Below, piece by piece: positions 3,813 to 61,291 of a stretch of DNA of 64,000 nt. The stretch comes from Candidatus Woesebacteria bacterium (GTDB lineage Bacteria > Patescibacteriota > Microgenomatia > UBA1400 > UBA1396), in assembly GCA_963749595.1 (NCBI GenBank), contig CAVVNJ010000010.1, positions 65,223 to 129,222 of the forward strand. Direction: 5' to 3'. The notes under the pieces were generated by a model. That model was given only the letters and a program-made list of their open reading frames with translations, made no database searches and was not told where the DNA came from. Within the stretch, counting starts at the first letter, position 1. Each line of letters begins with the position of its first letter. The position numbers were made by a program, and so were the translations under genes.

Positions 3813-3862
3813 TATACCGAGAGCTAATCGTTTGGGTCGCCTGATAGAACGTGAAGTCTCAC

Positions 3863-3918
3863 CTCTGGAAGGTCAGACCTTCCTGGCGTAGAAACGCCGA
3901 AGGTCTGACCTTCCAGAG
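3863..3918. repeat. REP-like palindromic element (double copy forming a long hairpin); likely terminator after rnhA
   Basis: ctctggaaggtcagaccttc at 3863-3882 is the exact reverse complement of 3899-3918. An inner ggcgt/acgcc hairpin is present. The core recurs at 17855, 24932, 49205, 56527 and 59813. Confidence 0.8.
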
Positions 3919-8590: not shown

Positions 8591-8727
8591 TGATTATATC
8601 AAGGAATCATTCCTGGGTGGGATTACCGCAAGATTCCGGCAGTATTCCGGCGCAACCTATCAAACTAGATCAGTCCGGATTTTCTTCGTCTTGTCTGGAG
8701 AGCTGGCGCGCGCTAGGGTAGGTTGTC

Positions 8728-12783: not shown

Positions 12784-12871
12784 GAGGAATCATTCCTACC
12801 TCACCCTACGCCTGGAGGAATCAATCCAGATTGATTCCTCTAGAGGTGAGCCTCGGTAGGAATGATTCCTC
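12784..12871. repeat. Nested palindromic element / bidirectional terminator between convergent genes
   Basis: gaggaatcattcctacc at 12784-12800 is the reverse complement of 12855-12871. The inner stem pairs 12815-12825 with 12830-12840. The core aggaatcattcct also occurs at 8602-8614. Confidence 0.7.
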
Positions 12872-17296: not shown

Positions 17297-17856
17297 AAAA
17301 ACAACAATGGCTGAGCAGCTCAGCGCTATTTATTTTTGGCCTGGTCATCATGATCGCTACCCTGCGGGTCTCGCACGTGCGGGCCAGCTATGCCTCCAAC
17401 GGATTGGTGCAACAGACGCAGGAAAGCGAAACCGATCTAATTTTGGCTCAACTCACTCAATCAAGTTTGCCGGGATCGGTTCCCTACCTTTGGCAGCGGG
17501 GCTGGGAGAGGGCCGAGTTGTTATGGTTGGCGGAAAATGAAAAACCTGAGATTTGGTTGGGACGCATTGCCGACCGGGTTGAATCGGCTGAGTTAGCGGA
17601 CTCACTGGGGCGGGAAGAGTTGGCCCTATCTACTTACCTAAAGGCTTTTGGTTACCTCCATCAGGGTGCTCACACCTGTTTTGCCGAGGGCGATACTCCA
17701 GAGTATTGTGAACGAGTAACCTTTACTGCCGCCACGGACGCCTTAGCGGATTCGGTGCAGAGATTTGCCCAGTCAACTACTTCCGACGCTCTTCGGGCCA
17801 GGGCAGACAGTCTGCGTTCCCAAATTCAAGCTCTCCGGCAGCAATTCCAGTTCTAA
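17293..17856 (+). CDS. Hypothetical membrane-anchored protein
   Basis: MKKQQWLSSSALFIFGLVIMIATL signal/anchor. There is an ATGA overlap with the upstream stop. Confidence 0.6.
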   Translation: MKKQQWLSSSALFIFGLVIMIATLRVSHVRASYASNGLVQQTQESETDLILAQLTQSSLPGSVPYLWQRGWERAELLWLAENEKPEIWLGRIADRVESAELADSLGREELALSTYLKAFGYLHQGAHTCFAEGDTPEYCERVTFTAATDALADSVQRFAQSTTSDALRARADSLRSQIQALRQQFQF

Positions 17857-17901
17857 GGTTTGACCTTCCAGGCGTGAGGGTGCTGTGGGGTCTTACCCTC
17901 A
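17855..17901. repeat. REP-like element copy
   Basis: aaggtttgaccttccaggcgtgagggt followed by the hairpin tgagggt...accctca. Confidence 0.7.
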
Positions 17902-21650: not shown

Positions 21651-22020
21651 AAAACTCCCCAGGAGACCAATAAGGGGTTTGTTTGCATCCACTCTGGGCA
21701 AACGGCGGCAAAGGTCGATGCTATTTACGATTGATACTCGATTCTCTGTCTGACTGATGCTCGACTTGTTACTTGATCGATATCCCTTTCATGGCCCTAC
21801 GACAATATGTACATATGTACAACAAACTCTAATACTCATTAATAGTGTCTTTCTTTCAAATCAGGATCACCGGACTTAAATTGATCGATCCTTGCCCAGA
21901 CTGGCCAGAAAACGACCCTAAACGACCCCTATTTTGGCCAAAGGGACTCCGAATGATCCCAACAACTGACCCGCTCTCGGCTCATTTAGGGGGTAGTCCG
22001 GGGTGCAAGTTGCCGGGAAG
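21651..22020. repeat. Degenerate copy (A) of the long inverted-repeat intergenic element family
   Basis: Collinear similarity to 50540-50945. Examples: tccactctgggcaaac versus tccacctgggcaaac, and gggggtagtccggggtgcaagttgccgggaag versus gggggacagtttgggaggcaaaatgctgggagg. Confidence 0.5.
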
Positions 22021-22084
22021 ATGTGTTTGCTTCGCGGCCAGGATGATCATAGAAGGTGCCAGACGCGCCGCCGCTTCGCCTTAA

Positions 22085-24925: not shown

Positions 24926-24931
24926 AGTTTT

Positions 24932-24982
24932 CCCTGGAAGGTCAAACCTTCCAGGGGTAAGTTTGAACAAGGTCAGACCTTA
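24932..24982. repeat. REP-like element copies after gap (likely terminator)
   Basis: Perfect palindrome ccctggaaggtcaaaccttccaggg at 24932-24956, plus aaggtcagacctta at 24969-24982. Confidence 0.75.
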
Positions 24983-26297: not shown

Positions 26298-26558
26298 ATG
26301 AATAAAGTTCAGCTTTCTCTCACTAACGAAGAAGTAGCGATTCTCAGCAGTTTTGGGAGCCAATTTGGTTATTCGTTGCCAAAAACCATCCGTTTTGTCA
26401 TTAGTCGATCGGTTGAGGAATTTGTCGACAAGGGTCTAGTGCCAGAGTTTCCGATGAGCGAGGCAACGGAGAAGATTGGTCAATTAGCCCTAGCCGAGCA
26501 TCAGAGCGGGCTAACCAAGAAGATTGACAGTATTAGTGATTTTATGAATCAACTATGA
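26298..26558 (+). CDS. Putative antitoxin of the RelE/ParE-type pair
   Basis: 86 aa. It overlaps the toxin gene by 4 nt (ATGA), the typical type II TA organisation. Confidence 0.6.
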   Translation: MNKVQLSLTNEEVAILSSFGSQFGYSLPKTIRFVISRSVEEFVDKGLVPEFPMSEATEKIGQLALAEHQSGLTKKIDSISDFMNQL

Positions 26559-26815
26559 CTTTGCACTATACCGATCGCTTTCGGAAAAGGTTGGCCAAGC
26601 GAGTGAATAAGAGTCTGGATTTAAAAGAGAAAGTTGAGCGGCAGTTGGGGTTATTGCAGGCTGATGCTCGTCACCCAGCTCTGAAAATGCATAAACTAAA
26701 AGGGGCGCGATCAGAGCAGTTCGCAATCCGCATTGAGGGTGATTTGCGGATCACTTTCGTCAGGGTCGATGACGGGTTTCTGTTAGTTGATATCATTACC
26801 CACGATGAGTATTAG
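26555..26815 (+). CDS. RelE/ParE superfamily (YafQ-like) toxin
   Basis: RHPALKMHKLKGARSEQFAIRIEGDLRITFVRVDDGFLLVDIITHDEY. Confidence 0.8.
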   Translation: MTLHYTDRFRKRLAKRVNKSLDLKEKVERQLGLLQADARHPALKMHKLKGARSEQFAIRIEGDLRITFVRVDDGFLLVDIITHDEY

Positions 26816-26906
26816 TCAAATAATAGTCGATTATTAGCCGCTATTTCACGAAATAGTTCACGAGTTTGAGAACAGATGCTTTCTTTTGGCTAATTCCAGC
26901 TAGTCA

Positions 26907-26934
26907 CAACTTGTACAAGATGTTGTACAAGTTG
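26907..26934. promoter_or_regulatory. Perfect 12-nt inverted repeat containing two TGTACA cores (possible operator)
   Basis: caacttgtacaa-gatg-ttgtacaagttg. It lies in the 340-nt region upstream of 27160. Related TGTACA pairs occur at 21808-21821 and 35571-35588. Confidence 0.4.
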
Positions 26935-27159
26935 GACCAAGCAGAAAATCCGGAAATTAACCCCTATCTCCCCACGTCCCTGCTCCCGAAGCTATTCCGA
27001 AATAATGCTAGTTGGTTCGCTCCTTTACACCCTGTGGACAAGTTATGCTACAATATGGGCTTAAGATGGATTGGACCTGCACATTTTTGCAGTCTGTATC
27101 AGTTGGAAGACCGATTGGTTCTTCCGTGTTCCCACTATTAAGCTCAACTAAGGAGGCCC

Positions 27160-32357: not shown

Positions 32358-32381
32358 TTTTTCTGAAAAAGTGCCAACCCT

Positions 32382-32790
32382 TGGAGATATATATCTCCCC
32401 GCCAACTTGCGCCCTAGGTGGGTTGGTAATGGCACCGAAAAGATCAGTTGGGAGGAACATTCGGGGACCGTTTACGTCCAGAATGGTTATTTGGGGACTT
32501 TTTCTGAGCCATCTCAGTGCCGATTTAAAACTAGGGACTCTTTGGGGACTGTTTGAGTCCAAGGAATTATGTCGAGTAAGGTTGTATCCCTGATTGTCGA
32601 GTTGGTCCACATAAGGCACGAGGAAAGTCCCCGATTTAAAGTCGGCACTCTAAAGGCACCGATAAAGTCCTTATTCGACCAACCAGGACCAAACCAGGAC
32701 CAATGGAGGAACATTAAGGGAACATCTCAGGATCATTTACGAACTATTTCGGGCGCAAATCGCTGGGAGGATATAGATGTCCGAACTCGT
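32382..32790. repeat. Copy B of the long inverted-repeat intergenic element (MITE-like)
   Basis: The left end is ggagatatatatctccccgccaacttgcgccc. The reverse complement of the right end is cacgagttcggacatctatatcctcccagcgatttgcgccc, nearly identical to the left end of copy C. Confidence 0.65.
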
Positions 32791-32823
32791 GAAGATAATT
32801 GTGAAAAACCAGACAAGCCAGAG

Positions 32824-35626: not shown

Positions 35627-36562
35627 TTGGCTCAGAGGATATATTTCCCTAACATGGAAAAATATCAAGAGCTTGGGCTTCCGGAATACAATATTCCTGA
35701 AAATACTGGTGTGATTCAACCACTTGAGGAAGGGATTAGAAGTGGGGAAATATTATTTGAAGGTGATCATTTCTTGGGCGTTTGTGCCGCTCCTCTCCGC
35801 CCCCACACCTATGGAAAACACGATGTCTTGTGGTTTATCTCGAGGGAAACGGGTGCCTTGGCCTCCAATTGGAACAATCTTCTACGGGATGAAGCGTTAA
35901 TTATCCAAATTGAGAAAGCATTTAGTTTACGGCAAGAAAAAGACGTCTCCCTGAGGCTATATTGTCACGATACCGTGCGGTCGATTCGTTATCCCCTAGA
36001 CAGTTCCGTTCTACTTGATAGGAACATTCAAAGTATTCCGCAAGCCCACATGCATATCGCTGAGGGAATCTCTAGCCCGCCGCCAGATCGAGTTTCCATC
36101 ATTGGGGCCGATTCTCCCAATTTTATCTATAAGTTGGCAGTAATTTTTAACCATTCTCAGGAGCTATTTTCAAAATGGTTAGTTGAACACAATGTTGACT
36201 TCGGCAAACCATTCTCGTATATCCAGAAAGTTGGACTGACCAATGCGGTTAGAGTACAGCGGACAGTTTTTGAGTTTGAGTCCCTATTGTTTGCATTAAA
36301 AGGTGCTGATGGACTAAAACAACAACTGGAGCCAATCTGGTACGCATTTGTTGCTTCCTTAGAGGACAACAAATTTTCTTACCCTGAATTGTCGGTTTTT
36401 ATGAAAACCAGCTACTCGCCAAACTTGGCCTTCCTAATTCCAACAGTTAACGATAATCGATTGTACAATCTTGACACACAAAAGACCTATGTTTTTGCCG
36501 GAACGATCTCTTCCCCAGTTGAGTTATTAATGAAAGGCGGCGGATGGCTGAACAGAATCTGA
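35627..36562 (+). CDS. Hypothetical protein with a HIT-like histidine motif
   Basis: 311 aa with IPQAHMHIAEG. Overlaps the start of the downstream guanylyltransferase gene. The start codon is uncertain (TTG 35627 or ATG 35654). Confidence 0.5.
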   Translation: MAQRIYFPNMEKYQELGLPEYNIPENTGVIQPLEEGIRSGEILFEGDHFLGVCAAPLRPHTYGKHDVLWFISRETGALASNWNNLLRDEALIIQIEKAFSLRQEKDVSLRLYCHDTVRSIRYPLDSSVLLDRNIQSIPQAHMHIAEGISSPPPDRVSIIGADSPNFIYKLAVIFNHSQELFSKWLVEHNVDFGKPFSYIQKVGLTNAVRVQRTVFEFESLLFALKGADGLKQQLEPIWYAFVASLEDNKFSYPELSVFMKTSYSPNLAFLIPTVNDNRLYNLDTQKTYVFAGTISSPVELLMKGGGWLNRI

Positions 36563-37662
36563 AGGTATCAAATAATATTTTCGCAGTAATTTTGGCCGGA
36601 GGAGGAGGAACAAGATTATGGCCAGCCTCAAAAGAGAAACTCCCCAAACAGTTTCTGAAACTCAACGGCCCCATCACCATGACCCAGGCAACTATGAAGA
36701 GGCTGTTGCCATTTGTTCCAATAGAAAACATTATCCTTGTGACCAATGAAAAGTACGCGGATGAAATAAAGAGGGAGTTGCCCGAGTTGCTAGAGGACAA
36801 CATAATTTATGAGCCAGAAAAAAAAGACACAGCTCTGGCAATGTTGGTTGGAGCGCTGGTGGCGCGCTCAAGAAATCCGGATGCCGTTATTGTAAATGGC
36901 GCCTGCGACCATATTGTGGAGAATATCGATCTATTTATCAATACCATGAAGGATGCAATCTCTATTGCCAGCAATAGTGAAAATCTTGTTGCCGTCGGAA
37001 TTGTTCCGACAAGACCCGACACTGCGTTTGGATACATACAAAGCGGCAAACCAATAACAGTTAAGGGTATATCACGCAAGATTTACGAGGTTTCCTCATT
37101 TCGTGAGAAACCTGATTATGATGTTGCCAAGGAATATGTTGAAAGCAAACAATATTATTGGAATGCAAACATGTACGTCTGGCATGTTGAGACATTAATA
37201 CAAGCTTTCCACAAATACTGTCCAGATGTGCTAAAAAGGGTTCAACCGATTATTAATGCTGATTTTATCTCCATCAAACAGCATCTTCCGAAGATCTATC
37301 AGGATTTTCCTTCCATCTCAATAGATTATGCCATCAGCGAAAAAACGGACAATCTCTTGCTTATCCCGGGAAATTTCGGTTGGAATGACATTGGCGACTG
37401 GAAAGTAGTATATGATCTGCAGCCACATGATGCTAATGGCAATGCTACGATGCCCAATTGTAGTTCAGATGAAGCCATGTTTATTAACAGCCGGGGAAAT
37501 CTAGTTTGGAACAGTAAAAAGAAGATCGCATTACATGGATTAAACAATCTGGTGGTTGTTGATACTGGCGATGTAATAATGATTTGTAAGAAAGATGAAA
37601 CCCAAAAAATAAAAAAAGTTGTTGAGTTGTTAAAAACACAGGGAAGATTGGAATATCTCTGA
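36544..37662 (+). CDS. manC: Mannose-1-phosphate guanylyltransferase-type sugar nucleotidyltransferase
   Basis: FAVILAGGGGTRLWPASKEKLPKQFLKL and GYIQSG...FREKPD. Confidence 0.85.
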   Translation: MAEQNLKVSNNIFAVILAGGGGTRLWPASKEKLPKQFLKLNGPITMTQATMKRLLPFVPIENIILVTNEKYADEIKRELPELLEDNIIYEPEKKDTALAMLVGALVARSRNPDAVIVNGACDHIVENIDLFINTMKDAISIASNSENLVAVGIVPTRPDTAFGYIQSGKPITVKGISRKIYEVSSFREKPDYDVAKEYVESKQYYWNANMYVWHVETLIQAFHKYCPDVLKRVQPIINADFISIKQHLPKIYQDFPSISIDYAISEKTDNLLLIPGNFGWNDIGDWKVVYDLQPHDANGNATMPNCSSDEAMFINSRGNLVWNSKKKIALHGLNNLVVVDTGDVIMICKKDETQKIKKVVELLKTQGRLEYL

Positions 37663-37668
37663 TCAAGA

Positions 37669-38307
37669 TCAGTACGAGGACAATACGTTTCCAGAAACAT
37701 TCTCTTTTTCTTTGCCTACGGCATAGGCGCTATGTTCCAAAAATAGCCAGGTATGAAAGTCAGACAAGGTCGAAATCCTTCTTATCTTTTCTTCAAGCTT
37801 TTTAACGCTTTCAGCCTCTCTACCTTTTCTTTCCCGCAGCACTTCTTCGCTGATACCAATGTTCTCTGAAGTAAGGAAGTCAAGTTCATACCCATCATTC
37901 GGAGTCAAGCCAAATACCCATTCGAAAGCCGCTTTGGTCCTAGCCATATGAAATTCCGAGGTGATGACTAATAACCGTTTTAAATTTCTTGGATCGGTGT
38001 GAATAACTCTGGCGAAGTAGGCGTTTCCGATGGTATCGTAGGAAGAAGTTTCCAATAATATTTTTTCAGGGCTGATACCCCGGCTGGCTAAATAATATGC
38101 CGCTGCTTGTGATTCAAAAATGGGAAAACCCTGTGGGTTCAGCGGTGGTGCTTTGTGGGTAGTGCCCGCGCTCAAGGTAATGAAAAATGGATTCTCGCGG
38201 TTACTTTTTAGTGCAAGTTCTAACCTTGCTTTGGTCCATTCCGGCAAACCACCTTTGTCTGTCAGACCACCACCGGGTATAAGAATTGCCTGATATTCTT
38301 TCCTCAC
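37669..38307 (-). CDS. YdcF/DUF218 family protein
   Basis: ILIPGGGLTDKG...LLVITSEFHMARTK. Confidence 0.75.
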   Translation of the reverse strand: MRKEYQAILIPGGGLTDKGGLPEWTKARLELALKSNRENPFFITLSAGTTHKAPPLNPQGFPIFESQAAAYYLASRGISPEKILLETSSYDTIGNAYFARVIHTDPRNLKRLLVITSEFHMARTKAAFEWVFGLTPNDGYELDFLTSENIGISEEVLRERKGREAESVKKLEEKIRRISTLSDFHTWLFLEHSAYAVGKEKENVSGNVLSSY

Positions 38308-38373
38308 ACCATCATCTTATCATAACTATAATTAATCCCCGCCAACAACGTCTTGATTTGTTTTTGATGCCTT

Positions 38374-39444
38374 TCAAAAGCCGTGAGTTTTGGATTTCTT
38401 GCCTCCTTTTTCAAAATAAGAAATTAAATGTGGGTCTATTAATTTGCCTCTTTTTTTCATCAAAAGCAACCTTCTTAATTTGCCCCTCAGAATTTCGGAT
38501 TGGTAAAAAGGACGGATATATCCTAAACGGCTTAATTGGCCAAGCACCGTCTCCGCCTCTTTAAACTGACCTAATATGTCCAAAGATCCAGAAATTCCCT
38601 CAGTGATGGTTGCCACTCTATCGTTGGAAAAGCCGATTTTCTCTACCAACAGTTGAGCTTTGTTAATCGTTATAAATAATTTGTCCTTGTCATTCCGGTG
38701 TGCATATGAAAATAGCAGCATTCGAAATAGCTCTGATTTTGTGACATCGTCTGCAGAATCTATGATATTTTCAGCATAATCAATTACTTTTTGCCATTGA
38801 CTAGTGGCGTAATAGTTCGTGACCACATTTAAATGGGTAAGATTAATTATTTCATTATCTTTTGTTGCTTCTCCAATGCTTAAGGTTTTTTCATTGTATG
38901 ATCTTGTGGCCTCAATAATATCTTCTCCCGTGCTGATGTCCGATAATATCTTTGCCTTTTCAACACAAATATTTCCATAGACTCCGATAGCCCCGGAACA
39001 TCTCGATGACAAGTCAGTTTCAAAAAGATTTTCGTAATACTCTGCCACTATAAAAGCGTTATGGATGTCACCACCCTCTCTAAGTGATCTGATAATCTTT
39101 GGTGCCATGGGAATCATATCGCCGTTTATTACCACCAAACACTCGTTGGCTTGTTCCTCGCAGAAGCCTTTTTTGGTTAATAAGTCCCGCATGAGACTTT
39201 CCCTAAGAAGAATGGCGTCAATTCTGGAGATTGCCAATATCTTGCAAAATGAATTAAGCTGTTTTTGACTGAAAATCCTCTTCCCATTTATCACTTTTGA
39301 CAAAATGCTAGGATCCATATCCCCAAAACCAAGATCCTCCATCATTTCCAGAGATAATTTATTGAGGGAGCTTCCGTTAATAAACACAATTCTATTGCCA
39401 ACTCTTTTATAATATCTTTGCAATAAATTATGTAGCTTTTTCAT
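38374..39444 (-). CDS. Putative HTH regulator with a long helical-repeat C-terminal domain
   Basis: AT-rich 356-aa ORF. The N-terminus DPSILSKVINGKRIFSQKQLNSFCKIL is XRE-HTH-like. The rest is predicted all-helical by eye. Confidence 0.55.
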   Translation of the reverse strand: MKKLHNLLQRYYKRVGNRIVFINGSSLNKLSLEMMEDLGFGDMDPSILSKVINGKRIFSQKQLNSFCKILAISRIDAILLRESLMRDLLTKKGFCEEQANECLVVINGDMIPMAPKIIRSLREGGDIHNAFIVAEYYENLFETDLSSRCSGAIGVYGNICVEKAKILSDISTGEDIIEATRSYNEKTLSIGEATKDNEIINLTHLNVVTNYYATSQWQKVIDYAENIIDSADDVTKSELFRMLLFSYAHRNDKDKLFITINKAQLLVEKIGFSNDRVATITEGISGSLDILGQFKEAETVLGQLSRLGYIRPFYQSEILRGKLRRLLLMKKRGKLIDPHLISYFEKGGKKSKTHGF

Positions 39445-39548
39445 TATCTTTAATTAAATAAATATCTGAATCTTACATCAAAATCAGGTAGGAGTACACT
39501 AATGGTTGCGATAGTTTGATCGATAGTGATCTGATTAAATAGAAAAAT

Positions 39549-39611
39549 ATGTTTGGATTAGCCTTATTGATTGATCTGATTGCAGTTACCAACGCGATTT
39601 GCTCGCCTTAG
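39549..39611 (+). CDS. Possible 20-aa hydrophobic peptide ORF divergent from the regulator
   Basis: MFGLALLIDLIAVTNAICSP. The tgattaaat box at 39532-39540 lies 8 nt before the ATG, matching the window's leaderless spacing. Confidence 0.25.
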   Translation: MFGLALLIDLIAVTNAICSP

Positions 39612-39652
39612 TCCAATAGAAACAATCAATAAACGCTTCCCAGAAATTTATG

Positions 39653-39735
39653 TGCCGGCTGAAGGATTCGAACCTACGTAGGCTATTGCCAACAGATTTA
39701 CAGTCTGTCCCCGTTGACCGCTTGGGTAAGCCGGC
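39653..39735 (-). tRNA. tRNA-Tyr (GTA)
   Basis: Acceptor GCCGGCT/AGCCGGC, anticodon loop cTGTAAa, long variable arm, and T loop TTCGAAT with one U-U mismatch in the T stem. No encoded CCA. Confidence 0.85.
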
Positions 39736-39789
39736 GATAGGGCAAATTATAGCATGATTTTTCTCGAGAAAATTGGTTCCCTAGTCGCC

Positions 39790-40176
39790 TTAACGATTAT
39801 TTGGCTTAGGTTTGATTCTTTGAACCAGACTATGGGCAAATAGCATCATGATGTCGATCCGGCCCAGTTCCAAAAAAAGCGCTTCCAAGGAGCGGGCATT
39901 TTTCTGATCGCGGTAATTTCCGGCAACACTTTCCAAAGCATCAAGGTCGACAACAACTTCCTCTTTACCGACCGAAACTTTCATTTGCGAGCCATGCTGC
40001 TCCCGCAGTTCGGCGATCATTTTATTGACCGTCTCCCAGGCAGATTCAACTCCCGTTGTTTCCGGCTTATGTTCGAAATCCGGGACCGGGAGAACTTCTT
40101 TCAATCGGGTGTTATGGGAAACCACCAGCCGGCCAAAACCTTCGGCAATCGTGGATTGATCTTTTCTTTTTCTCAT
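39790..40176 (-). CDS. Hypothetical protein
   Basis: 128-aa ORF with no recognised motif. Confidence 0.55.
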   Translation of the reverse strand: MRKRKDQSTIAEGFGRLVVSHNTRLKEVLPVPDFEHKPETTGVESAWETVNKMIAELREQHGSQMKVSVGKEEVVVDLDALESVAGNYRDQKNARSLEALFLELGRIDIMMLFAHSLVQRIKPKPNNR

Positions 40177-43987: not shown

Positions 43988-44000
43988 ACGTAGCATTGTT

Positions 44001-44071
44001 AGGGCTATGATGTAACGGTAGCATGAGGGTCTCCAAAACCCTTCGTCTAGGTTCAAATCCTAGTAGCCCTG
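44001..44071 (+). tRNA. tRNA-Trp (CCA)
   Basis: Acceptor AGGGCTA/TAGCCCT, anticodon loop cTCCAAa, T loop TTCAAAT. No encoded CCA. Confidence 0.9.
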
Positions 44072-44124
44072 CTGACTATTGAATACCCATTGACACCTGT
44101 TGCTTATATGCAACAATATCCTAA

Positions 44125-44436
44125 GTGAAAAAGATTGTCGAAATCGACGAAAGGGCTAGTAAGGAACTCAGAACCTTCTCTCCAGAAATCCAAGCTAGAT
44201 TCGTCGCTCTGTTCGGCATTTTAGGTCAAGAAGGTTTTCTCAAGGAACCGTTTGCCAAGCGGCTCGATGACAAACTCTTTGAGGTTCGAGTCAAACATGA
44301 AGGACAGTGGCGAGCGGTTTATGCCTACGTCGATAAAAATAAAGTAATTATTTTGTCGGCCTTTCACAAAAAGACGCAGAAAGCGCCGAAACAAGAATTA
44401 AAGAAAGCCGAAAAACGTTTACAGGAGTATTTATGA
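44125..44436 (+). CDS. Gp49/HigB-like RelE-superfamily toxin
   Basis: FSPEIQARFVALFGIL...LFEVRVKHEGQWRAVYAYVDKNKVIILSAFHKKTQK. Confidence 0.75.
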   Translation: MKKIVEIDERASKELRTFSPEIQARFVALFGILGQEGFLKEPFAKRLDDKLFEVRVKHEGQWRAVYAYVDKNKVIILSAFHKKTQKAPKQELKKAEKRLQEYL

Positions 44437-44720
44437 AGAAACAACCAAAAACCATCTCGATTAAAGAATTTTCTCAGGGATTTAGCCAGGAACAAAAAAG
44501 AATCGTCGAAGAAGAAACCCGATTTTATTTTTTACTGACTTCTTTCAAAGAAGCCAGGGAAAAGAAGGGTTTGTCTCAGGAAGAACTGGCTCGAAAGGCC
44601 AAAGTGAACCGTACTACCCTCAGCAAAATCGAGTCCGGTCTCCGCAATGCGACGATCGACACTCTAGATAAGTTGGCGACAGCCATGGATATGAAGCTGG
44701 ATGTTAGATTGAGGGCTTAA
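44433..44720 (+). CDS. XRE-family HTH antitoxin (HigA-like)
   Basis: KGLSQEELARKAKVNRTTLSKIESGLRNATIDTL. Overlaps the toxin by 4 nt. Confidence 0.8.
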   Translation: MKKQPKTISIKEFSQGFSQEQKRIVEEETRFYFLLTSFKEAREKKGLSQEELARKAKVNRTTLSKIESGLRNATIDTLDKLATAMDMKLDVRLRA

Positions 44721-44797
44721 TTTTCCGAAGTAGTTCCAACACGCTTCATTAGTCCCCACAACAGCCAAACTAATTTTTCTTTGCTATCATAGCCGCA

Positions 44798-45136
44798 ATG
44801 ATTCTAACTAAATCGCAACCATTTTCGCTTGAGGAAATCGAACAGTTAAAAGAACAGTTCGAGGTTTACATTAAAACGGTTATTGATGTGGAAAAGAAAG
44901 TTTGTTCGGCCGGCATGGATCGACATTTTGAGGGTGAAGAAATCCTATTGGGTCAAGGTTCAAAACAGAGTGATGTTTGGGGTGGTGGAATCGATATCGA
45001 GACTAAGGAGATAGACTTTAACTCACTGATCAATGTTCGACCCAGGGATAACAATTCCAAAAACGAAATCCAGAACGAAACTATTAGAGGGCAATACAAA
45101 AAGCTGACCGAATATTTTTTCCAGAAATTATTATGA
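44798..45136 (+). CDS. Small conserved hypothetical protein (possibly DUF5674-like)
   Basis: 112 aa. The tgctatcat box lies 7 nt before the ATG. The family name is from memory only. Confidence 0.5.
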   Translation: MILTKSQPFSLEEIEQLKEQFEVYIKTVIDVEKKVCSAGMDRHFEGEEILLGQGSKQSDVWGGGIDIETKEIDFNSLINVRPRDNNSKNEIQNETIRGQYKKLTEYFFQKLL

Positions 45137-45411
45137 CTGACACATCACTATTGGCGGGATCACTTTCCAACGACCTTTTTCGGGTAGTTAATCTGCAGCA
45201 GCGGGGCTCGATGTTGGCCGCACAACGTTTTTTACAAGAGGCTAAGCGCTGGTCCGGACCGCTGGCGAAAAAAGCGGATAAGAAATACATCCGCACTATT
45301 GCCGAGCACATCAATCTAGCTGATCCGGAAGAAACAATGTCGATGGCTGAAATAGAAAAATATCTGATGTTTGGGGTTTTGTTACAGAATTACACGCTAC
45401 ATAATGCGTAG
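45133..45411 (+). CDS. Hypothetical protein
   Basis: 92-aa ORF with an ATGA overlap with the upstream gene. Confidence 0.5.
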   Translation: MTDTSLLAGSLSNDLFRVVNLQQRGSMLAAQRFLQEAKRWSGPLAKKADKKYIRTIAEHINLADPEETMSMAEIEKYLMFGVLLQNYTLHNA

Positions 45412-45483
45412 ATTCCAATACGTTCCACCAGTCCCGCTAAGCGACTATTTTCCATAAGATCTCCGCTCGGGTATGATGGACAC

Positions 45484-46095
45484 ATGGCAAAAACAAGAAT
45501 TCTTGATACCTCGTTAACAAGCCTGATTTTTCTATCCCTATTTTTTATTTCAGGAGTCGGTTTTGGATTGATTGCCAGAGGATCTTTTTGGCAGCAAAAA
45601 AACAGCGCGGCGGAGTCCGCCCAATCTGCGCCGGAAGAAGTAGTTCTAAATTCCGACTTAATTTACCAAAATGACGAATATGGTTTTTCATTACAATACC
45701 CGGAGGGGTCAATAATCGATACTGCGCCTAATCGGGATCGTATCCTGAAGATCGAGCCTCCGGCAGAATACACTCTTGCCGAAACTCAACTAACTATTCG
45801 GACCTTGGCAGAGCCCTTTGGCGAGTCTATCAATCGACTCATCAAGCAAGATAAACAAGAGGCGAGCAATAATCTATATACCGGTGTGTTAGTTGCCGAG
45901 ATTGATGGCCTACCAGCGAAGAGATTTTATACCATTGTTTGTCCAGAAAGAGGCAGTTGTGAAAAAACGAATAAATATTATGTCAATGCTCAGGGAATCA
46001 CTTATATAATTACCACGACAACTTTTGTGGACGGAGGCAATACTTCAATTAACGAGGATGCAACAGAAAGAATAGTTAATTCTTTAGACCTTTAG
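45484..46095 (+). CDS. Hypothetical membrane-anchored protein
   Basis: TM segment LIFLSLFFISGVGFGLI, then a YQNDEYGFSLQYP domain similar to that of 40238-40897. Confidence 0.6.
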   Translation: MAKTRILDTSLTSLIFLSLFFISGVGFGLIARGSFWQQKNSAAESAQSAPEEVVLNSDLIYQNDEYGFSLQYPEGSIIDTAPNRDRILKIEPPAEYTLAETQLTIRTLAEPFGESINRLIKQDKQEASNNLYTGVLVAEIDGLPAKRFYTIVCPERGSCEKTNKYYVNAQGITYIITTTTFVDGGNTSINEDATERIVNSLDL

Positions 46096-47610: not shown

Positions 47611-49329
47611 TCGACGCTGTCTTCGACGCAAATAAATTAGGGTGACACCCAAGAGAGTGGCCGCGATGGCCAGCGAAAAAGGCCAGGCCGTTACGGTTTC
47701 CTCAACAATAACCGGGCCGGTTTGAGCATTGCGAATGGTCGCTCGGATTCGGTATGGTCCGAAAGCAAAGAGCGGGTCATAGGTAAAGGGAGTGGCCATG
47801 GCAGAGCGGGGGTCGTCCCGCCGTTGCCGGGCCGCAAAAATTTCTCGGCTGCTGTTGGCCAAAATCCGGTCCGGTAGACCTGGTTGCTCGTGGACGATGT
47901 GGTCGCGCCAATCAAGGACCACAATTGAAAGATCCGGAGCGGCGACGGTCTGGCTGGTGTTTTCTACTTGGGGACGAACAATTAAAGTTTGCAGCGAATC
48001 GATTAGTTTGGGCAAACGAAGAAAATTTATTTTCCAAGATAGGGGTTCAAGATTGTCGCTGGTGACGCGGACTAAAAGGTTGGCCGCGACGGCGCCGCGC
48101 GCCTGGGCGCCGGAATCGTTGAGAGGATCTTCCGCGGTTGGTTTTGAGGAGAGCAGAAGCATAAAGTACCAATCCCGGCGCGCGGCGTCACTGGGAATAT
48201 CCAATCCCAAGACCAGTTGTTGACTGGTATGACTGGGCAGGACGAAGGGTTGGTTGAGTTGGCGATCGGCATTTTGCATTTTGGCATAAGGAAAAGTATT
48301 GGTTTCCAACAACATTGGATAGCCGGTCTGGCCATCAGCGCCAAAATCCTGCAGCGTGGGGACAATCTCGACGCCGGTGGCGCCGCTGTTTTCCAAAAGA
48401 AAAGCCTGAGTGACTAGTTTCCCAGGTTGGACCGCAATTTCTACCACCGTTGGGCTGAGGGACAATTCCCAAGGTGCGGTTTGTTGGGCGCGCGCGGCGC
48501 GCGGTACGGCCAACAGGGAAATTCCCATGAGCGCGGTGATTAAGATTCCGGCTAAACTTCGCCGCGCCGCGCGCGCCAGCCAAATCCAACCTGCCACCAC
48601 CATGGCCAAGGAGGCCCATTGAGCGATGGTCAGACCCCAGGGTCCAGCGGCTGAATCAAGTCGTAGCAACTCGAGTGAGAAACGCACGGTGCCATATCCC
48701 ACCAGATACATTCCGGTATACAGTCCGCTACCCATTTGAAAAAAAGGAGCCTTGGTTTTTCTTTGATAACGCCATAATAAATACAGTCCCAAGCCGATTA
48801 ACAAGGTGGCAATCGACTCATAAAGAAACAAAGGGTGATAGCGTTCGACTGATGAATATTGTGGCAGCCGGTGCGCCGGGTCGATCTTGATTGCCCAGGG
48901 CAAGGAGGTGGGCCGACCATACAGTTCTTGATTAAAATAGTTGCCCCACCGACCGATAGCCTGGCCGAAAGGAACGGCGACAAAAATGGCATCCAGCAGT
49001 TCGGACCAGCGCCAGGGCATTCGGGTTAATCGTTTTCCCAACCAGAGTCCGATCAGACCGCCGATGATGGCGCCGTAAATTCCCAAACCCCCCTGCCAAA
49101 TATATAGCGCCTCAAGAGGGTGTGATTGATAGAGGTGCCAGTCGGTAAAAACGTGATAAATCCGGGCGCCAATTAGTCCACCGATAAAGATGTTCCACGC
49201 CAGGAGGGTCAGACCTTCAGAGGTTTTACCTCTGGAAGGTCTGACCTTCTCGGCCAAGATGTGTTCGGCTAGCGAAAAGGAGGCCAAAAAAGCTATCCCA
49301 ATAATTAATCCATAAGGCGAGAAATTCAT
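47590..49329 (-). CDS. lgt: Prolipoprotein diacylglyceryl transferase fused to a roughly 300-aa extracytoplasmic C-terminal extension
   Basis: LYIWQGGLGIYGAIIGG and FGQAIGRWGNYFNQELYGRPT. The extra domain ends in a TM segment plus RRRQRR. Confidence 0.85.
   Translation of the reverse strand: MNFSPYGLIIGIAFLASFSLAEHILAEKVRPSRGKTSEGLTLLAWNIFIGGLIGARIYHVFTDWHLYQSHPLEALYIWQGGLGIYGAIIGGLIGLWLGKRLTRMPWRWSELLDAIFVAVPFGQAIGRWGNYFNQELYGRPTSLPWAIKIDPAHRLPQYSSVERYHPLFLYESIATLLIGLGLYLLWRYQRKTKAPFFQMGSGLYTGMYLVGYGTVRFSLELLRLDSAAGPWGLTIAQWASLAMVVAGWIWLARAARRSLAGILITALMGISLLAVPRAARAQQTAPWELSLSPTVVEIAVQPGKLVTQAFLLENSGATGVEIVPTLQDFGADGQTGYPMLLETNTFPYAKMQNADRQLNQPFVLPSHTSQQLVLGLDIPSDAARRDWYFMLLLSSKPTAEDPLNDSGAQARGAVAANLLVRVTSDNLEPLSWKINFLRLPKLIDSLQTLIVRPQVENTSQTVAAPDLSIVVLDWRDHIVHEQPGLPDRILANSSREIFAARQRRDDPRSAMATPFTYDPLFAFGPYRIRATIRNAQTGPVIVEETVTAWPFSLAIAATLLGVTLIYLRRRQRRLSESSA
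49205..49250. repeat. REP-like palindrome embedded in frame in the lgt coding sequence
   Basis: agggtcagaccttcagaggt-ttt-acctctggaaggtctgaccttct. It encodes EKVRPSRGKTSEGLT in the loop after TM1. Confidence 0.7.
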
Positions 49330-50418: not shown

Positions 50419-50502
50419 GAGTTAATTCTAGAGATTATTTTCGGTGGAGACAACCCAAATAAAGGGCGTAACTCCTGATTGGATTTTTCACGACCATCTT
50501 CA

Positions 50503-50968
50503 CGAGTTTGGGATCTATATCTCCCCAGCGATTTGCCTCCCAAACTGTCCCCTCCAGAGACCTCTAATTACTCCTAAAGGTGACCCCAAACAGGTCCTAA
50601 TTCAAACCTTATGGGCAATAGAGGTCCAGTACTAGGTTAGTTTGAGTCCACCTGGGCAAACAAGGGCCATTTAGAGACCGTCGATCGGTCAAAAACCAAA
50701 GATACTGTCAGGATGAACTAGATTGCATAGTAGTCGATAAGCGGTTAGTACAACAGTTAATTGAACCCGCTAATGGGAACCATTCGCCCATTCTTGACCC
50801 TGATTTGCCCGTCGTGGCCAAGAAGGCACCGGGAACTGACCCTTTTTAACCCAAAGGTCCGTTATTGCACCCCAAGCAACCCTAAAATAAGACCTGTTCG
50901 GGGTGACTTTGGGGGACAGTTTGGGAGGCAAAATGCTGGGAGGGTATATATCCCCAGCCATAAACTCG
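50503..50968. repeat. Copy C of the long inverted-repeat intergenic element (best-defined, MITE-like)
   Basis: The left end is cgagtttgggatctatatctccccagcgatttgcctcccaaactgtcccc. The reverse complement of 50912-50968 is cgagtttatggctggggatatataccctcccagcattttgcctcccaaactgtcccc. Confidence 0.7.
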
Positions 50969-51111
50969 ACCATCCGGCTCCATACAAGTTTCAGGACTGA
51001 TTTCTATGTACTATTGTTAGAGGGTTGAAGCATAGTAAGATGCTTAGCATGAGCAAACCGGAACATCGTCGGGACTAATCCTTGACGATACCGGACTTAG
51101 GAGAACTTAGT

Positions 51112-51564
51112 ATGCGCCCTCTCGAAAACGATCGGTCCCCGGCGTCGGGAGCGGAGTTCCTCCCTTATTATTTCGTCGTTGACAGCGATATTAGGTCGGT
51201 TATCGATCAGCTTGAAAATCAACATCCAGAATTCACCCATAACAGCCATAGAGTGGGCCGGGTTGAAACATTCTGGTTCAGCAACGCCGAGGACGAGAGG
51301 AATTTTGAAGAGGCATTGCTAAAAAATGGCGTCGATTTTGAAAAAGAGTTTCGCCCATCCTATTTCTTGCTCAACTCGGAAAGTGCCCGGATGGTAAGCA
51401 ACGCCCTTTGGTCGGAGGATGATGATTTTGGCATTAATTCTACTCAGCAAGGAAACCAAGAAGTTCTCTGGGTCAAAACTCCTGATGCTGAGCGGCGGCT
51501 ACGGGCGAAACTTCGCGAGCTGCGGGTAAATGCGGATATTCGCGACTTTAACCCGCTTCAATAA
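51112..51564 (+). CDS. Hypothetical protein
   Basis: An aggag RBS lies 9 nt before the ATG at 51112 (the ORF opens at 51082). Confidence 0.55.
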   Translation: MRPLENDRSPASGAEFLPYYFVVDSDIRSVIDQLENQHPEFTHNSHRVGRVETFWFSNAEDERNFEEALLKNGVDFEKEFRPSYFLLNSESARMVSNALWSEDDDFGINSTQQGNQEVLWVKTPDAERRLRAKLRELRVNADIRDFNPLQ

Positions 51565-51574
51565 GTCGTTGAGT

Positions 51575-54914: not shown

Positions 54915-56150
54915 ATGACTTGGCAGAGCGAGGTAATTCGTCAGGATTTTCCGATTTTATCCCGACAGGTTCATGGGCAGCCATTGATTTATCTCGATAA
55001 CGCGGCCACGACGCATAAACCGGAGGCGGTGATTGGAGCGATCAGCGATTACTATCGTCACCACAACTCGAATGTCCACCGCGGGAGTTCATACGTTGGC
55101 CGATGAGAGCACGCAGATTTATAGCGAGGCCCGGCGAGACGATCGCCGGTTTTTTTGGGGCGACAGCCGGAAGAATTGATCCTGACTCGCAACGCGACCG
55201 AGGCGCTCAACCTGGCCGCGCTGGGCTGGGGTCGGCAATGGGTTGAGGCCGGGCGACGCGATCGCGGTCACGATCATGGAGCACCACAGCAACTTTGTCC
55301 CCTGGCAGGAGTTGGCGCGGGAGAAGGGCGCTCAGTTCGTGGTTTTGCCGTTGACGGACGACGGTCGTTTAGACCAGACGGCCGCGCTGCAGATTATGGA
55401 TGAGTTAGGCGACAAATTAAAGGTCCTGGCGCTGACCCACGTTTCTAATACTTTGGGCACGGTCAACCCGGTCGAGAAGATCACCGCTCATCTTAGTCGA
55501 AAATCCTGGCGTTCCCGCGTGCTGGTCGTCGCCGATATTGCCCAAAGCGCGGCTCGCATTCCCCTTTCCTCGATTGCTCTGGGCGTCGACGCTCTGGCTT
55601 TCTCCGGTCATAAGATCTATGGTCCGATGGGCATTGGCGGTTTAATTGTTCAACGCAAGTCGATTGGCAGAGTTCCAACCGGTTTTGTTTGGCGGCGGCA
55701 TGATCGGCCGCGTCGGCGAATCCGAGACCACCTTACGCCGAGGATCTTCAGGATCGTTTTACCGCCGGAACTCCTGATGTAGCCAGCGCGGCCGGTCTGG
55801 CCGCCGCCTTCGACCTACTGAACAAAATTGGTCGGAGGCCGTTTTGGTCCACGAGCAGGAAATCACTCAGTACGCCTACGAGCAGCTTAGTCGGTTGCCG
55901 GAAATCGAGTTGGTCGGTCCCCAGCCGGACGCCGGACGACTCGGCTCAGTCGCTTTCCTGTATAAAGGAGTGCATGCCCATGACGTGGCTCAGATTCTCG
56001 ACCGCTCCGGGGTGGCGGTTCGCTCGGGTCATCACTGCACGATGCCACTGCATACTGTATTGTGGCTGGCCAGCGACCACCCGCGCCAGTTTTGCGATTT
56101 ATACCACAGCCGAGGAAATCGATGCGCTGGTGGCGGCGCTGATCAAGTAA
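54915..56150 (+). pseudogene. sufS: Cysteine desulfurase SufS-type, at least 8 frame changes
   Basis: LIYLDNAATTHKP, TRNATEALNL, IMEHHSNFVPW, LTHVSNTLGT, FSGHKIYGPMGIGG, FTAGTPDVA and RSGHHCTMPL are spread over frames 0,1,2,0,1,2,0,2,0. Confidence 0.8.
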
Positions 56151-56171: not shown

Positions 56172-56589
56172 ATGGACGATCTTTACCGGGACCACATTCT
56201 AGATCATGCCGAAAATCCCGCCGCGAGGGTAAGTTTGCCCCATCCCACCCACACCGGCAGTTATGGCAATCGCTCCTGCGGCGACGAGATCGACCATTGA
56301 TCTAGAGATTATTGACGGCCGAATCATCGCGGTTCGTTGGCGCGGCGAGGGTTGCGTGATTAGTCAAGCGGCGGCCAGTTTGCTAGCCGAGGAAATCGAA
56401 AATCTGCCGATTGAAGAAGTATTATCCTGGGAAGATGACGCGGTGCTGGACGAGCTCGGTTTGCCGGAGGTTTCTTACGCCCGCCGGCCTTGCGCTCTGA
56501 CGTTTATCAATACCCTCCGCCACATCCTGAGGGTCAGACCCTCCAGGCGTGAGGGTACCCCAGGGTCAGACCCTCAGGAGGAAGGGTGA
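56172..56589 (+). CDS. sufU: SufU/IscU-type Fe-S scaffold, one frame break at about 56292 and a repeat-encoded C-terminal tail
   Basis: MDDLYRDHILDHAENP...GNRSCGDEI, then (+1) TIDLEIIDGRIIAVRWRGEGCVISQAAAS. Confidence 0.7.
56527..56578. repeat. REP-like element (variant core GGGTCAGACCC, two copies) forming the 3' end of the sufU ORF
   Basis: ctgagggtcagaccctccaggcgtgagggtaccccagggtcagaccctcagg. Confidence 0.65.
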
Positions 56590-58947: not shown

Positions 58948-59814
58948 ATGTTGCTGCCCGTTTTAACCCTCCGCTCGGTTGTTGTTAGACTGATTAAACT
59001 GGGGGTTCTGGCTGGCCTGGTTCTGATACTGATTGGCAATTTGGTTCCTCAACCGCAGGCTTATGTCCAAGGCGGAGTCGGCAAAATATTGCTCCAACCG
59101 GCGACTGGAACCATGACCACCGGAACGGATTTTGCGGTTGATGTCATGATTAATACCGGCGGTCGGGCAATTTCAGCCCTGGCTTTTCGCCTACCGGTGA
59201 ATGCCGCTGACTTGCAGGCCACATCAGTTACCGGCAATGAGGCTATCGGAGGAGGTTGGTCTTACCCTTATAGTGCGACCACCGTTAATGGACAGAACAT
59301 TGTCGAGTTGATGGCGGTTAACAGTTCGACGACCGGCTATACTTCCGGTACCAACGTCAAAATTGCCACGATTGTTTTTCGGGCGACCTCAGCTTTTACC
59401 AATAAAGCTTTGACCTTTGATTTGACGCAAACGCAAATGTTGACTAAAGAAGCCACGCCGGTTGATATTTTGGGAACGGCGACTGGCGGAACCTATAGTG
59501 CCTCCGGAACGGCGGTTGCGCCCACCCCGACACCAACGCCAACCCCCACACCGACACCTGATCCGGATGCTACTCCCACCCCGACGCCGCTACCGACTCC
59601 CACTCCTGATACTACCGCTACGCCCACTCCAACACCGGACATTGGTATTGGTGGTGGCGATGACACTATTGGTGGTTCAACAGACACCACTGGTCAGCCA
59701 GCAATCACTCAACCGGTTCCGGAAACGGCCAGTCCAGGTGCGATGTTTGCCTTGGGCCTCGGCGGTTTTGGCTTGCTGGTCTTGGGAGGCTTTGCCTTCC
59801 GGCGCCGCAGCTAA
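58948..59814 (+). CDS. Cohesin-domain protein with a PT-rich stalk and a C-terminal sorting-signal-like anchor
   Basis: An aaggag RBS is present. The cohesin-like segment is TDFAVDVMINTGGRAISALAFRL...KIATIVFRA. The TPTPTP linker is followed by VPETASPGAMFALGLGGFGLLVLGGFAFRRRS. Confidence 0.75.
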   Translation: MLLPVLTLRSVVVRLIKLGVLAGLVLILIGNLVPQPQAYVQGGVGKILLQPATGTMTTGTDFAVDVMINTGGRAISALAFRLPVNAADLQATSVTGNEAIGGGWSYPYSATTVNGQNIVELMAVNSSTTGYTSGTNVKIATIVFRATSAFTNKALTFDLTQTQMLTKEATPVDILGTATGGTYSASGTAVAPTPTPTPTPTPTPDPDATPTPTPLPTPTPDTTATPTPTPDIGIGGGDDTIGGSTDTTGQPAITQPVPETASPGAMFALGLGGFGLLVLGGFAFRRRS

Positions 59815-59856
59815 GGTTAAACCTTCCAGGCGTGAGAATGGGCAAGATCTGATCTT
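59813..59856. repeat. REP-like element copy plus a small palindrome between convergent genes
   Basis: aaggttaaaccttccaggcgtgaga, then aagatc-t-gatctt. Confidence 0.6.
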
Positions 59857-61291
59857 AAGCGGAAAGCGGTTTCATCGTTGGAAACAGAATAACGTCGCGA
59901 ATTTTGGTTTGATTGGTCAGCAGCATTACCAAGCGATCAATTCCCAATCCCAAGCCACCGGTTGGCGGCATACCATACTCCAGCGCTTCAATAAAATCTT
60001 CGTCCAACGGATGTTTTTCCTCATCTTCGGTGCGTTCTTCCGCCCAGTACTGCCGCTGCAGGACCGGATCGTTGAGCTCGGTGTAAGCATTGCCCACCTC
60101 CCAGCCAAAAATGTAGGGTTCAAAGCGTTCGATTAAGCTCGGATCTTTCCGATGCGGCTTGCAGAGGGAAGTCGTTTCGCGGGGCATATCGGTCACAAAA
60201 GTCGGTTGAATCAATTTTGGCTCAACGGCCTCAAAAAGGGCAGCAATGCCCAGACCGCGTTTCCATTCCCCTGCGTACTCCAAGCCCTGTTTTTTGATCT
60301 CTTCGCGCAGCTGATCATCGCTTAATTGATCGACGTCAATATTGAGGTATTCCTTGATTCCGTCTTTCATTGGCAGCCGACGCCAGGCACCAGCCAACTC
60401 AATCGTCGTGCCTTGATACTCGAACCGCGTAGTGCCATGCACTGCCAGTGCCGCATTCTGGTAAATTTTTTCGGTCAGGGTCATCATGTCGGTGTAGTCA
60501 GCGTAAGCGGCGTAACATTCCATCATCGAAAACTCCGGGTTATGAGTCCGGTCAACGCCCTCGTTGCGGAAGTTGTGGTCAATCTCGTAAACCTTATCGA
60601 ATCCACCGACAATCAGGCGCTTAAGGTAGAGTTCATCGGAAATTTTCAGATATTGGGGAATGTCCCAGGCGTTAATGTGGGTCACGAATGGCCGGGCGTT
60701 GGCACCACCATACAAAGGTTGCAGGGTCGGAGTTTCCACCTCCAGAAAACCCGCTTCGTCCAAAGTTTTTCGCACCGACTGCATAATCGCGGTGCGCGCT
60801 CGGATGACATTTTTTACCGCCTCATTCAGATTTAAGTCCACATAGCGACGCCGGTACCGTTCTTCCTCGTCAGAAAGTCCGTACCAAGTATCGGGCAGGG
60901 GGCGAATGGCTTTAGCCAATAGTTCGATCCGACGCGCCAAAACACTGGGCTCGTTGGCTTGGGTCAAGAAGCGTTCGCCGGAAACGCGGAGAAAGTCGCT
61001 GGTTTGGAGCGACTCGACCTCGGCAAAATTATCGGTAGCGTCGGCCTTGCAGACAACCTGAATTTTTCCTGATTCGTCAATTAAATCGATAAAGCGAATT
61101 TTGCCGTGACCGCGTAGGGCTCGGATGCGGCCGGCAATCTGGACCGATCGGCCGTCGAGTTCTTCTAAAGCCTGAGTGTTGGTGTGAGTTTTGTGGGCTT
61201 CCTGGGGATAGGGATTGGTGCCGCGTTCGATTAATTCCTGGCGAACGTGGAGGCGGGATTGGCGGATGTCGTCGAGACGGGAAGAGGCCAT
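59855..61291 (-). CDS. lysS: Lysyl-tRNA synthetase (class II)
   Basis: Class II motifs FRNEG..., ...GGLGLGIDRLVMLL and an OB-fold N-terminus. Probable start MASSRLDDIRQ at 61291. Confidence 0.9.
   Translation of the reverse strand: MASSRLDDIRQSRLHVRQELIERGTNPYPQEAHKTHTNTQALEELDGRSVQIAGRIRALRGHGKIRFIDLIDESGKIQVVCKADATDNFAEVESLQTSDFLRVSGERFLTQANEPSVLARRIELLAKAIRPLPDTWYGLSDEEERYRRRYVDLNLNEAVKNVIRARTAIMQSVRKTLDEAGFLEVETPTLQPLYGGANARPFVTHINAWDIPQYLKISDELYLKRLIVGGFDKVYEIDHNFRNEGVDRTHNPEFSMMECYAAYADYTDMMTLTEKIYQNAALAVHGTTRFEYQGTTIELAGAWRRLPMKDGIKEYLNIDVDQLSDDQLREEIKKQGLEYAGEWKRGLGIAALFEAVEPKLIQPTFVTDMPRETTSLCKPHRKDPSLIERFEPYIFGWEVGNAYTELNDPVLQRQYWAEERTEDEEKHPLDEDFIEALEYGMPPTGGLGLGIDRLVMLLTNQTKIRDVILFPTMKPLSA

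Follow-up and report, generated by a model that had tools for sequence, protein, structure and literature searches.

The intergenic element at positions 50503 to 50968 of the 64-kb stretch of DNA analyzed here (referred to as the window) is a long imperfect palindrome without coding character. For future reference this element was designated element C, and its two diverged homologues in the window were designated copies A and B. We tentatively place element C in an old family of nonautonomous DNA repeats that are bounded by terminal inverted repeats and resemble miniature inverted-repeat transposable elements (MITEs) or foldback elements, in a CPR-like bacterium; this reading may well be correct, and we hold it with somewhat less than even confidence. 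The element is most likely mobile DNA that lacks a transposase of its own rather than an RNA gene.

Anatomy of element C

A preliminary description of the sequence had reported inverted-repeat ends at 50503-50968, and arms of 58 nt that are 78% complementary were found where it had placed them. Its statement that the last 20 nt of the arms are identical was borne out by a perfect stretch of 21 nt, over which 50532-50552 is the reverse complement of 50912-50932. An 18-mer from this stretch occurs 2 times in the window, compared to 0.07 expected. The arm similarity that had been described as continuing inward was recovered as three inner arm pairs (50577-50602/50885-50910, 50615-50627/50856-50868, and 50654-50669/50795-50810), and a global arm-versus-arm alignment gave 70% identity over 211 aligned nt. 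Element C folded far better than shuffled sequences on both strands (z of -8.1 and -9.1, one per strand). The two start codons that flank the element (50418 and 51112) are 693 bp apart, a distance that falls to 663 bp with the TTG at 51082 as the start. The parts of the element are as follows.

50503-50968, plus strand: element C, long imperfect palindrome, noncoding (plus is the polar strand, on which the phased C-runs lie)
50510-50567, plus strand: left terminal inverted repeat, 58 nt
50897-50954, minus strand: right terminal inverted repeat, 58 nt
50510-50526, within the left terminal inverted repeat: left mini-palindrome, GGGATCTATATCTCCCC
50942-50954, within the right terminal inverted repeat: right mini-palindrome, GGGTATATATCCC
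50532-50552 (left) and 50912-50932 (right): 21-nt perfect core

Elsewhere in the window, a cysteine desulfurase (Aminotran_5) homologue at 54915-56150 (plus strand) is spread over three frames, and the corresponding 417-aa gene of a syntenic relative, L013, is intact. The split homologue is either a pseudogene or the product of indel errors in the source assembly. Indel errors of this kind could slightly inflate the divergence between arms and between copies, and they do not affect the main conclusions.

Two diverged copies and a candidate fourth

Related copies had been proposed at 32382-32790 and 21651-22020. Both loci were homologous to element C in nhmmer searches and are listed below with their revised boundaries, together with one weak and degenerate candidate, which was all that profile searches for a further full copy returned in the 64-kb window.

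32378-32790, minus strand: copy B, inverted relative to element C, with five TGnTCC units phased at 11 nt and with fresh tandem duplications of 11 nt
21651-22036, plus strand: copy A, in the same orientation as element C, with most of the left arm deleted and seven consecutive phased C-run gaps (21895-21970)
26838-27010, plus strand: solo polar motif (26845-26864), then a weak arm-like stretch at 26965-27008

The homology between element C and copy B was detected with E values of 2e-8 to 4e-9, and pairs that included copy A gave E values of about 2e-7 to 6e-7. Terminal arms are also present in copy B, and copy A has one intact arm, the right arm, which is homologous to the right arms of B and C. 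Likeness across the copies runs from left arm to left arm (35 of 43 positions match between C and B) and from right arm to right arm (54 of 75 positions match between B and A; z of 9.5). Because the arms resemble each other side by side in this way, the common ancestor was already an asymmetric imperfect palindrome. Identity among the three copies is about 55 to 65%, and conservation between copies is low outside the element ends. No near-identical copies were found among the three in the window, and there was no sign of a recent burst. The arm cores of C and B differ on both sides (GCCTCCC/GGGAGGC in C versus GCGCCC/GGGCGC in B), a change that is equally compatible with a stem and with recognition of both ends by one protein.

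The candidate at 26838-27010 is possibly a degenerate fourth copy or an occurrence of the polar motif by itself. Its motif at 26845-26864 begins 30 nt after a RelE/ParE-like toxin-antitoxin pair (two 86-aa genes, 26298-26815, plus strand), and a pair of CTTGTACAAG palindromes accompanies the motif on the 3' side of this gene pair. TGTACA-type palindromes occur at the center of copy A (ATATGTACATATGTACA, 21805-21821) and in the solo-motif region (26896-26925). All three elements share the sequence (G)TACAAC, which lies in their cores and runs the same way in each.

A polar motif at one end

The two ends of the element family are not equivalent. One end of C and of B reads TTTTTCACnAnnATCTTCACGAGTTyGG, which includes the direct repeat TTCACGA-N5-TTCACGAG, located at 50487-50506 in element C.

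50483-50514, plus strand: polar end motif of element C, TTTTTCACGACCATCTTCACGAGTTTGGGAT, at one end only
32786-32805, minus strand: polar end motif of copy B, TTCACAATTATCTTCACGAG, lying 19 nt past the stop of a 117-aa gene

The direct repeat occurs 3 times in the window compared to 0.16 expected, and the third occurrence (26845-26864) stands alone. The motif lies 19 to 30 nt past the stops of two genes, the 117-aa gene and that of the RelE-like toxin. A search of viral contigs for the TTCACGA motif returned two matches, both at chance level and in coding sequence.

Helically phased C-runs

On the polar strand, which is the plus strand for C and A and the minus strand for B, runs of two or more C residues lie about one helical turn apart. 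Nearly half of the gaps between successive C-runs (32 of 73) were 9 to 12 nt long, compared to 16% elsewhere in the window (binomial P = 1.5e-8). The most frequent gap was 11 nt, and multiples of 10 to 11 nt also occurred. The longest array is in the right arm of element C.

50766-50895, plus strand: C-run array of element C, spacing of 9 to 13 nt, with ten consecutive gaps at 50787-50893

These ten gaps constitute the longest series of consecutive 9- to 13-nt gaps on either strand of the 64 kb; the series of seven at 21895-21970 is in the right arm of copy A, and the maximum elsewhere in the window was five. When 1,502 segments of 170 nt were scanned by Fourier analysis, the top ranks at periods of 10.25 to 11.75 nt were taken by the three elements, always on the polar strand. 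Tandem Repeats Finder detected fresh 10- to 11-nt duplications in copies B and A, and A-rich positions are found about half a turn before each C-run. Neither the polar motif nor the phased C-runs were part of the preliminary description. The phasing appears to be a DNA-level pattern of the kind typical of binding sites arrayed on one face of the helix, and the arrays suggest, from their sequence, a predicted binding of protein at multiple sites.

Coding capacity and tests for a structured RNA

One alternative raised beforehand, that the elements are fragments of a known coding gene, was not supported. Open reading frames inside the elements scored -0.02 to -0.27 bits per codon, compared to a mean of +0.23 for the genes of the window and +0.12 to +0.17 for small neighboring genes. 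An 802-aa concatenate of all element open reading frames had no match among 5.8 billion proteins, not even to itself, which indicates that gene callers did not call these frames. Fragments of coding genes were ruled out by the negative codon scores together with the lack of protein matches (5.8e9 proteins).

The preliminary description had also offered a family of structured RNAs, and this suggestion was not supported. A search of the whole window against Rfam at the gathering score returned nothing except two tRNAs, and at E ≤ 10 the three element loci gave only chance-level snoRNA and sRNA matches, so that a known RNA family was ruled out. No promoter-like or terminator-like sites belonging to the elements were found; the sole promoter-like match near them belongs to a cupredoxin gene. 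Mismatches between the arms were not biased toward G-U over A-C types (11 versus 14, 15 versus 18, and 4 versus 5), and many were transversions. When RNAalifold was applied to the three copies, a sample of low power, only the terminal stem (about 30 bp) was retained in the consensus, and the covariation term was positive and therefore penalizing (+2.51). Copy B folded modestly better than shuffled sequences (z of about -3).

Gene context and indications of possible mobility

Copy A lies between tandem genes (PfkB and PGK), copy B between convergent genes (an F5/8 type C domain protein and the 117-aa gene), and element C between divergent genes (cupredoxin and a 150-aa open reading frame). With three different gene arrangements, the copies have no common regulatory context. 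The products of the neighboring genes are cupredoxin, Lgt, PGK, PfkB, the F5/8 type C domain protein, and orphans. The preliminary description had listed no transposase, and neither a transposase nor an integrase was found among about 30 window proteins scanned.

Two syntenic relatives, L013 and L017, keep the gene order MFS, 100-aa gene, cupredoxin, 182-aa gene, Lgt, and DUF4349. In both, 54 to 56 nt separate the stop codon of the 100-aa gene from the start of the cupredoxin gene, compared to ∼1.1 kb in the window, and homology with the window resumes at ACGCCCTTTATTTGGG. The additional DNA in the window comprises the following.

50470-51574, no strand: lineage-specific segment of ∼1.1 kb, containing the motif, element C, and a 150-aa orphan gene
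51112-51564, plus strand: 150-aa orphan gene, inside the extra segment beside element C, with a coding-like codon score and a good ribosome-binding site

The site of element C is thus empty in the two relatives, but the missing segment includes the orphan gene and the relatives are distant from the window organism (55 to 60% identity between cupredoxin proteins). The comparison therefore identifies the segment as accessory and does not show that the element moved alone.

The 150-aa orphan had no homologue in exhaustive protein searches, which included 1.8 billion representative proteins, and it matched no Pfam or PHROG family. Its single-sequence AlphaFold model (pLDDT of 65) has two beta-alpha-beta-beta-alpha repeats and gave only generic matches to ferredoxin/ACT-like folds, with a TM score of about 0.3. 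Pfam, PHROG, and the AlphaFold model offered no support for the orphan as a transposase. The orphan is unrelated to the 117-aa gene beside copy B.

Logan contigs from the same organism (runs ERR12037366 and ERR15459711) carried the flanking genes, and in each of the four cases they stopped within an element (window positions 50514, 50630, 21804, and 32749). The Logan contigs of this sample are about 2.6 to 6.5 kb long, and the chance of a contig ending within a given 400-nt stretch was estimated at roughly 9% each. Breaks of this kind are expected from exact repeats of k-mer length elsewhere, and they could alternatively reflect population heterogeneity in the arrays. If the Logan assemblies used 31-mers, as we presume, about 50485-50659 (the motif and the left arm of C) would recur elsewhere in the genome in exact stretches of at least 31 nt, and copies closer than those in the window would probably be located there.

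An 8-bp direct repeat, CGACCATC, flanks element C at 50491-50498 and 50967-50974, where it overlaps the conserved motif; nothing comparable was found at B or A. The interpretation of the element as MITE-like was upheld in part. The inverted ends, noncoding character, dispersed contexts, empty orthologous site, and contig breaks speak for it, but no consistent target-site duplication and no transposase were found, and the copies are only about 55 to 65% identical.

Pattern scans for the arm core (ATATMYYCCCRSCRAYTTGCNYCC) in 185,579 representative genomes, JGI metagenomes, and IMG/VR gave matches at chance level, with the exception of two contigs, L010 (534-2376) and L011 (JGI24021J15306_10086205 and JGI24158J21664_10117408). 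These carry an element of ∼1.8 kb whose 29-nt inverted ends, CCCCCACCAAnTTGCrCCCATG, are similar to the family's arm core; there is a hairpin at one end, and the interior holds a tandem satellite of ∼150 bp that repeats the motif CAACTTGCGC. This element may be a distant relative, or its resemblance may be a coincidence of the search pattern. Searches of plasmids and phages with the element by blastn gave no match.

Other features of the window

A separate family of short hairpins, similar to REP sequences or terminators and unrelated in sequence to the elements, is found at gene ends and has the form GAAGGTCAGACCTTC ... GAAGGTCTGACCTTC with variants. A similar GAGGGTGTCACCCTC hairpin is located upstream of the cupredoxin gene of another relative, L016.

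3853-3918, 24930-24982, 49189-49249, and 59813-59857: short hairpin family
17855-17901, 56532-56576, 12784-12871, and 8602-8633: also short hairpin family

Low-GC stretches at 36000-40000 and 44000-46000 (0.39 to 0.43 compared to about 0.50) adjoin tRNA-Tyr (39652-39735) and tRNA-Trp (44001-44072); sugar-nucleotide genes and a DUF218 gene are found there beside genes that matched no family, and the stretches may be islands. The organism looks CPR/Patescibacteria-like, judging from its small genes, from DUF5671 and DUF5674 in the neighbors and the relatives, and from the fact that its genome is missing among the representative genomes. Cumulative GC skew rises monotonically through the window, and a replication origin was rejected on this basis.

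Proposed mechanism and alternative explanations

Each arm can be viewed as tripartite: the mini-palindrome at the tip (GGRGATATATMYCC), then a conserved core (CCCAGCGATTTGCnCCC), then a series of degenerate 10- to 11-bp units that each contain a C-run. With this unit length, successive units face the same side of the double helix. The phased units are probably bound cooperatively by a transposase or recombinase that is encoded elsewhere, in the manner of transposon ends with multiple sites, and such binding of the arm units would have allowed copies to spread to unrelated intergenic sites.

The same architecture might instead serve a fixed or domesticated chromosomal scaffold for protein binding, such as an iteron- or centromere-like site or DNA wrapped around a nucleoid protein or gyrase, the copies being retained for this function and not for mobility; the phased 10- to 11-bp units, operator-like mini-palindromes, and TTCACGA direct repeats would then assemble a nucleoprotein complex. 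The strand-specific phasing, which is unique in the window, the A-rich positions half a turn before the C-runs, the persistence of diverged copies in a seemingly compact genome, and the occurrence of the polar motif alone at 26845 are consistent with this possibility. However, no copy has a partition, replication, or regulator gene beside it, gene contexts differ between copies, the orthologous site of the relatives is without the element, and conservation between copies is low outside the ends. A scaffold seems unlikely. A more far-reaching version, in which the elements are more than simple transposon debris and form an undescribed class of chromosomal nucleoprotein platform in CPR-like bacteria, is quite doubtful; these palindromes of ∼400 bp, with arms made of helically phased C-run units, would be bound by a protein for chromosome organization, segregation, or insulation of transcription, and they would still spread or turn over. 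It is also quite unlikely that the element marks one end of a larger inserted cassette or islet, or the scar left by it, in which case the motif and palindrome would be the recombination site of a site-specific recombinase and the cargo would be the 150-aa orphan at C, the 117-aa gene at B, and the toxin-antitoxin pair at the solo motif. The segment absent from the relatives does consist of element plus orphan gene, the motif does follow closely on the stops of the 117-aa gene and the RelE-like toxin gene (19 to 30 nt), and the mini-palindrome with its AT-rich center may resemble the core site of a recombinase. Yet copy A has no accessory gene, the gene is on opposite sides of the element in C and B, no recombinase was found, and 380 to 466 bp is far above the size of an integron attC site, in an arrangement that is not a tandem cassette array.

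Two further possibilities concern the transcribed strand. Regularly spaced YC dimers have been described for the primary binding site of Rho, with (YC)N9-13 motifs and linkers of roughly 9 nt discussed (PMC6144790), and RNA from the polar strand would display C-runs every 10 to 11 nt, near this spacing, so that the element might be a Rho-dependent terminator or insulator module. Besides this compatible spacing, C reaches 0.30 to 0.34 versus 0.15 to 0.20 for G in some 80-nt windows of the polar strand, and A, B, and the solo motif are each downstream of, and co-oriented with, a gene. Secondary-structure potential is reported to be unfavorable for Rho termination (PMC6144790), however, and the element is strongly self-complementary; the overall excess of C over G is small, and element C has no co-oriented gene upstream. 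We regard a Rho-related function as very unlikely. The least probable of the readings is a family of structured noncoding RNAs that fold as a long hairpin. It would account for the very stable fold of element C (z of -8 to -9) and for some changes seen on both sides of the terminal stem when C is compared with B, but both strands fold equally well, copy B improves little on shuffled sequences, and the 10- to 11-nt periodicity is more readily a DNA-level feature; the Rfam, promoter and terminator, G-U, and consensus results above also count against it.

The best-supported reading is that the family fits the known MITE type, although its arms are built in an unusual way; it also resembles the transposon ends in which a protein binds several subterminal sites. 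Little has been described of mobile and repeated DNA in CPR/Patescibacteria-like genomes, and MITEs of such bacteria were not the subject of any paper found in a full-text literature search. Long palindromic repeats of this kind would account for the positions at which assemblies of this organism break and could be used as strain-typing markers. If the arms with their phased units do act as a binding platform, they point to an undescribed DNA-binding protein or transposase; if they are only decaying transposon debris, they are an ordinary feature that is worth masking in annotation.

Comparison with known systems

Bacterial MITEs (Correia/NEMIS of Neisseria, ERIC, RUP, and Nezha of cyanobacteria) were compared with the elements by description, not by sequence. 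Like these, the elements are short and noncoding, have terminal inverted repeats (58 nt, 78% complementary, with 21 nt perfect in C), can form hairpins, and have no transposase of their own. They may also resemble MITEs in being dispersed in intergenic regions (three copies and one doubtful copy in 64 kb, with the contig breaks suggesting more) and in being absent at orthologous sites, as seen for the site of element C in two distant relatives. Unlike MITEs, they are longer (380 to 466 bp), self-complementary nearly throughout, and highly diverged from copy to copy, with an extra polar motif at one end and arms of helically phased units; no reproducible target-site duplication was found at the three copies, and no parent insertion sequence in the window proteins scanned or the public collections searched. 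The ends, which the preliminary description had not recognized as those of any IS family, could not be assigned to one here either. IS200/IS605-type ends were rejected because the hairpins have inverted rather than direct flanks and because the 150-aa orphan had no match to a transposase family in Pfam; Tn3-type ends were ruled out because the GGGG tips face inward.

Multiple subterminal binding sites are a feature of the ends of Tn7 and Mu and of the foldback, CACTA, and hAT elements of eukaryotes. The elements share with all of these the many short motif repeats within long inverted ends, a layout suited to cooperative binding of a transposase. However, the units here are very degenerate (a C-run with weak flanks) and 10 to 11 bp long, compared to Tn7 and Mu sites of about 20 bp.

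REP/BIME sequences and REPIN doublets are, like the elements, intergenic palindromic repeats, and BIMEs are binding sites for proteins (IHF and gyrase). In contrast to the elements, REPs are 20 to 40 nt and REPINs about 70 to 100 nt long, and they are mobilized by RAYT transposases; neither a RAYT gene nor a REP consensus was found here. The separate short hairpins of the window (3853-3918 and 49189-49249 among them) look closer to REPs than the elements do. Integron attC sites are imperfect palindromes of roughly 57 to 141 bp that end each cassette on its 3' side, in co-oriented arrays beside an integrase gene, and an attC site or gene cassette was rejected for elements of 380 to 466 bp in mixed orientations and contexts with no integrase found. 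As in rut sites, C-containing dimers are regularly spaced on one strand (PMC6144790), but rut sites are unstructured, clearly C-rich, and G-poor, whereas the element is a strong palindrome with a slight excess of C.

The two arms with direct repeats about 11 bp apart are also reminiscent of parC of plasmid R1. This centromere is built from 11-bp iterons. The elements likewise contain a phased array (P = 1.5e-8, with 10 and 7 consecutive gaps), but partition genes (adaptor plus NTPase) are not adjacent. Unlike parC, the elements have no parM/parR-like genes beside them, are present in several chromosomal copies, and are composed of units that are far less uniform.
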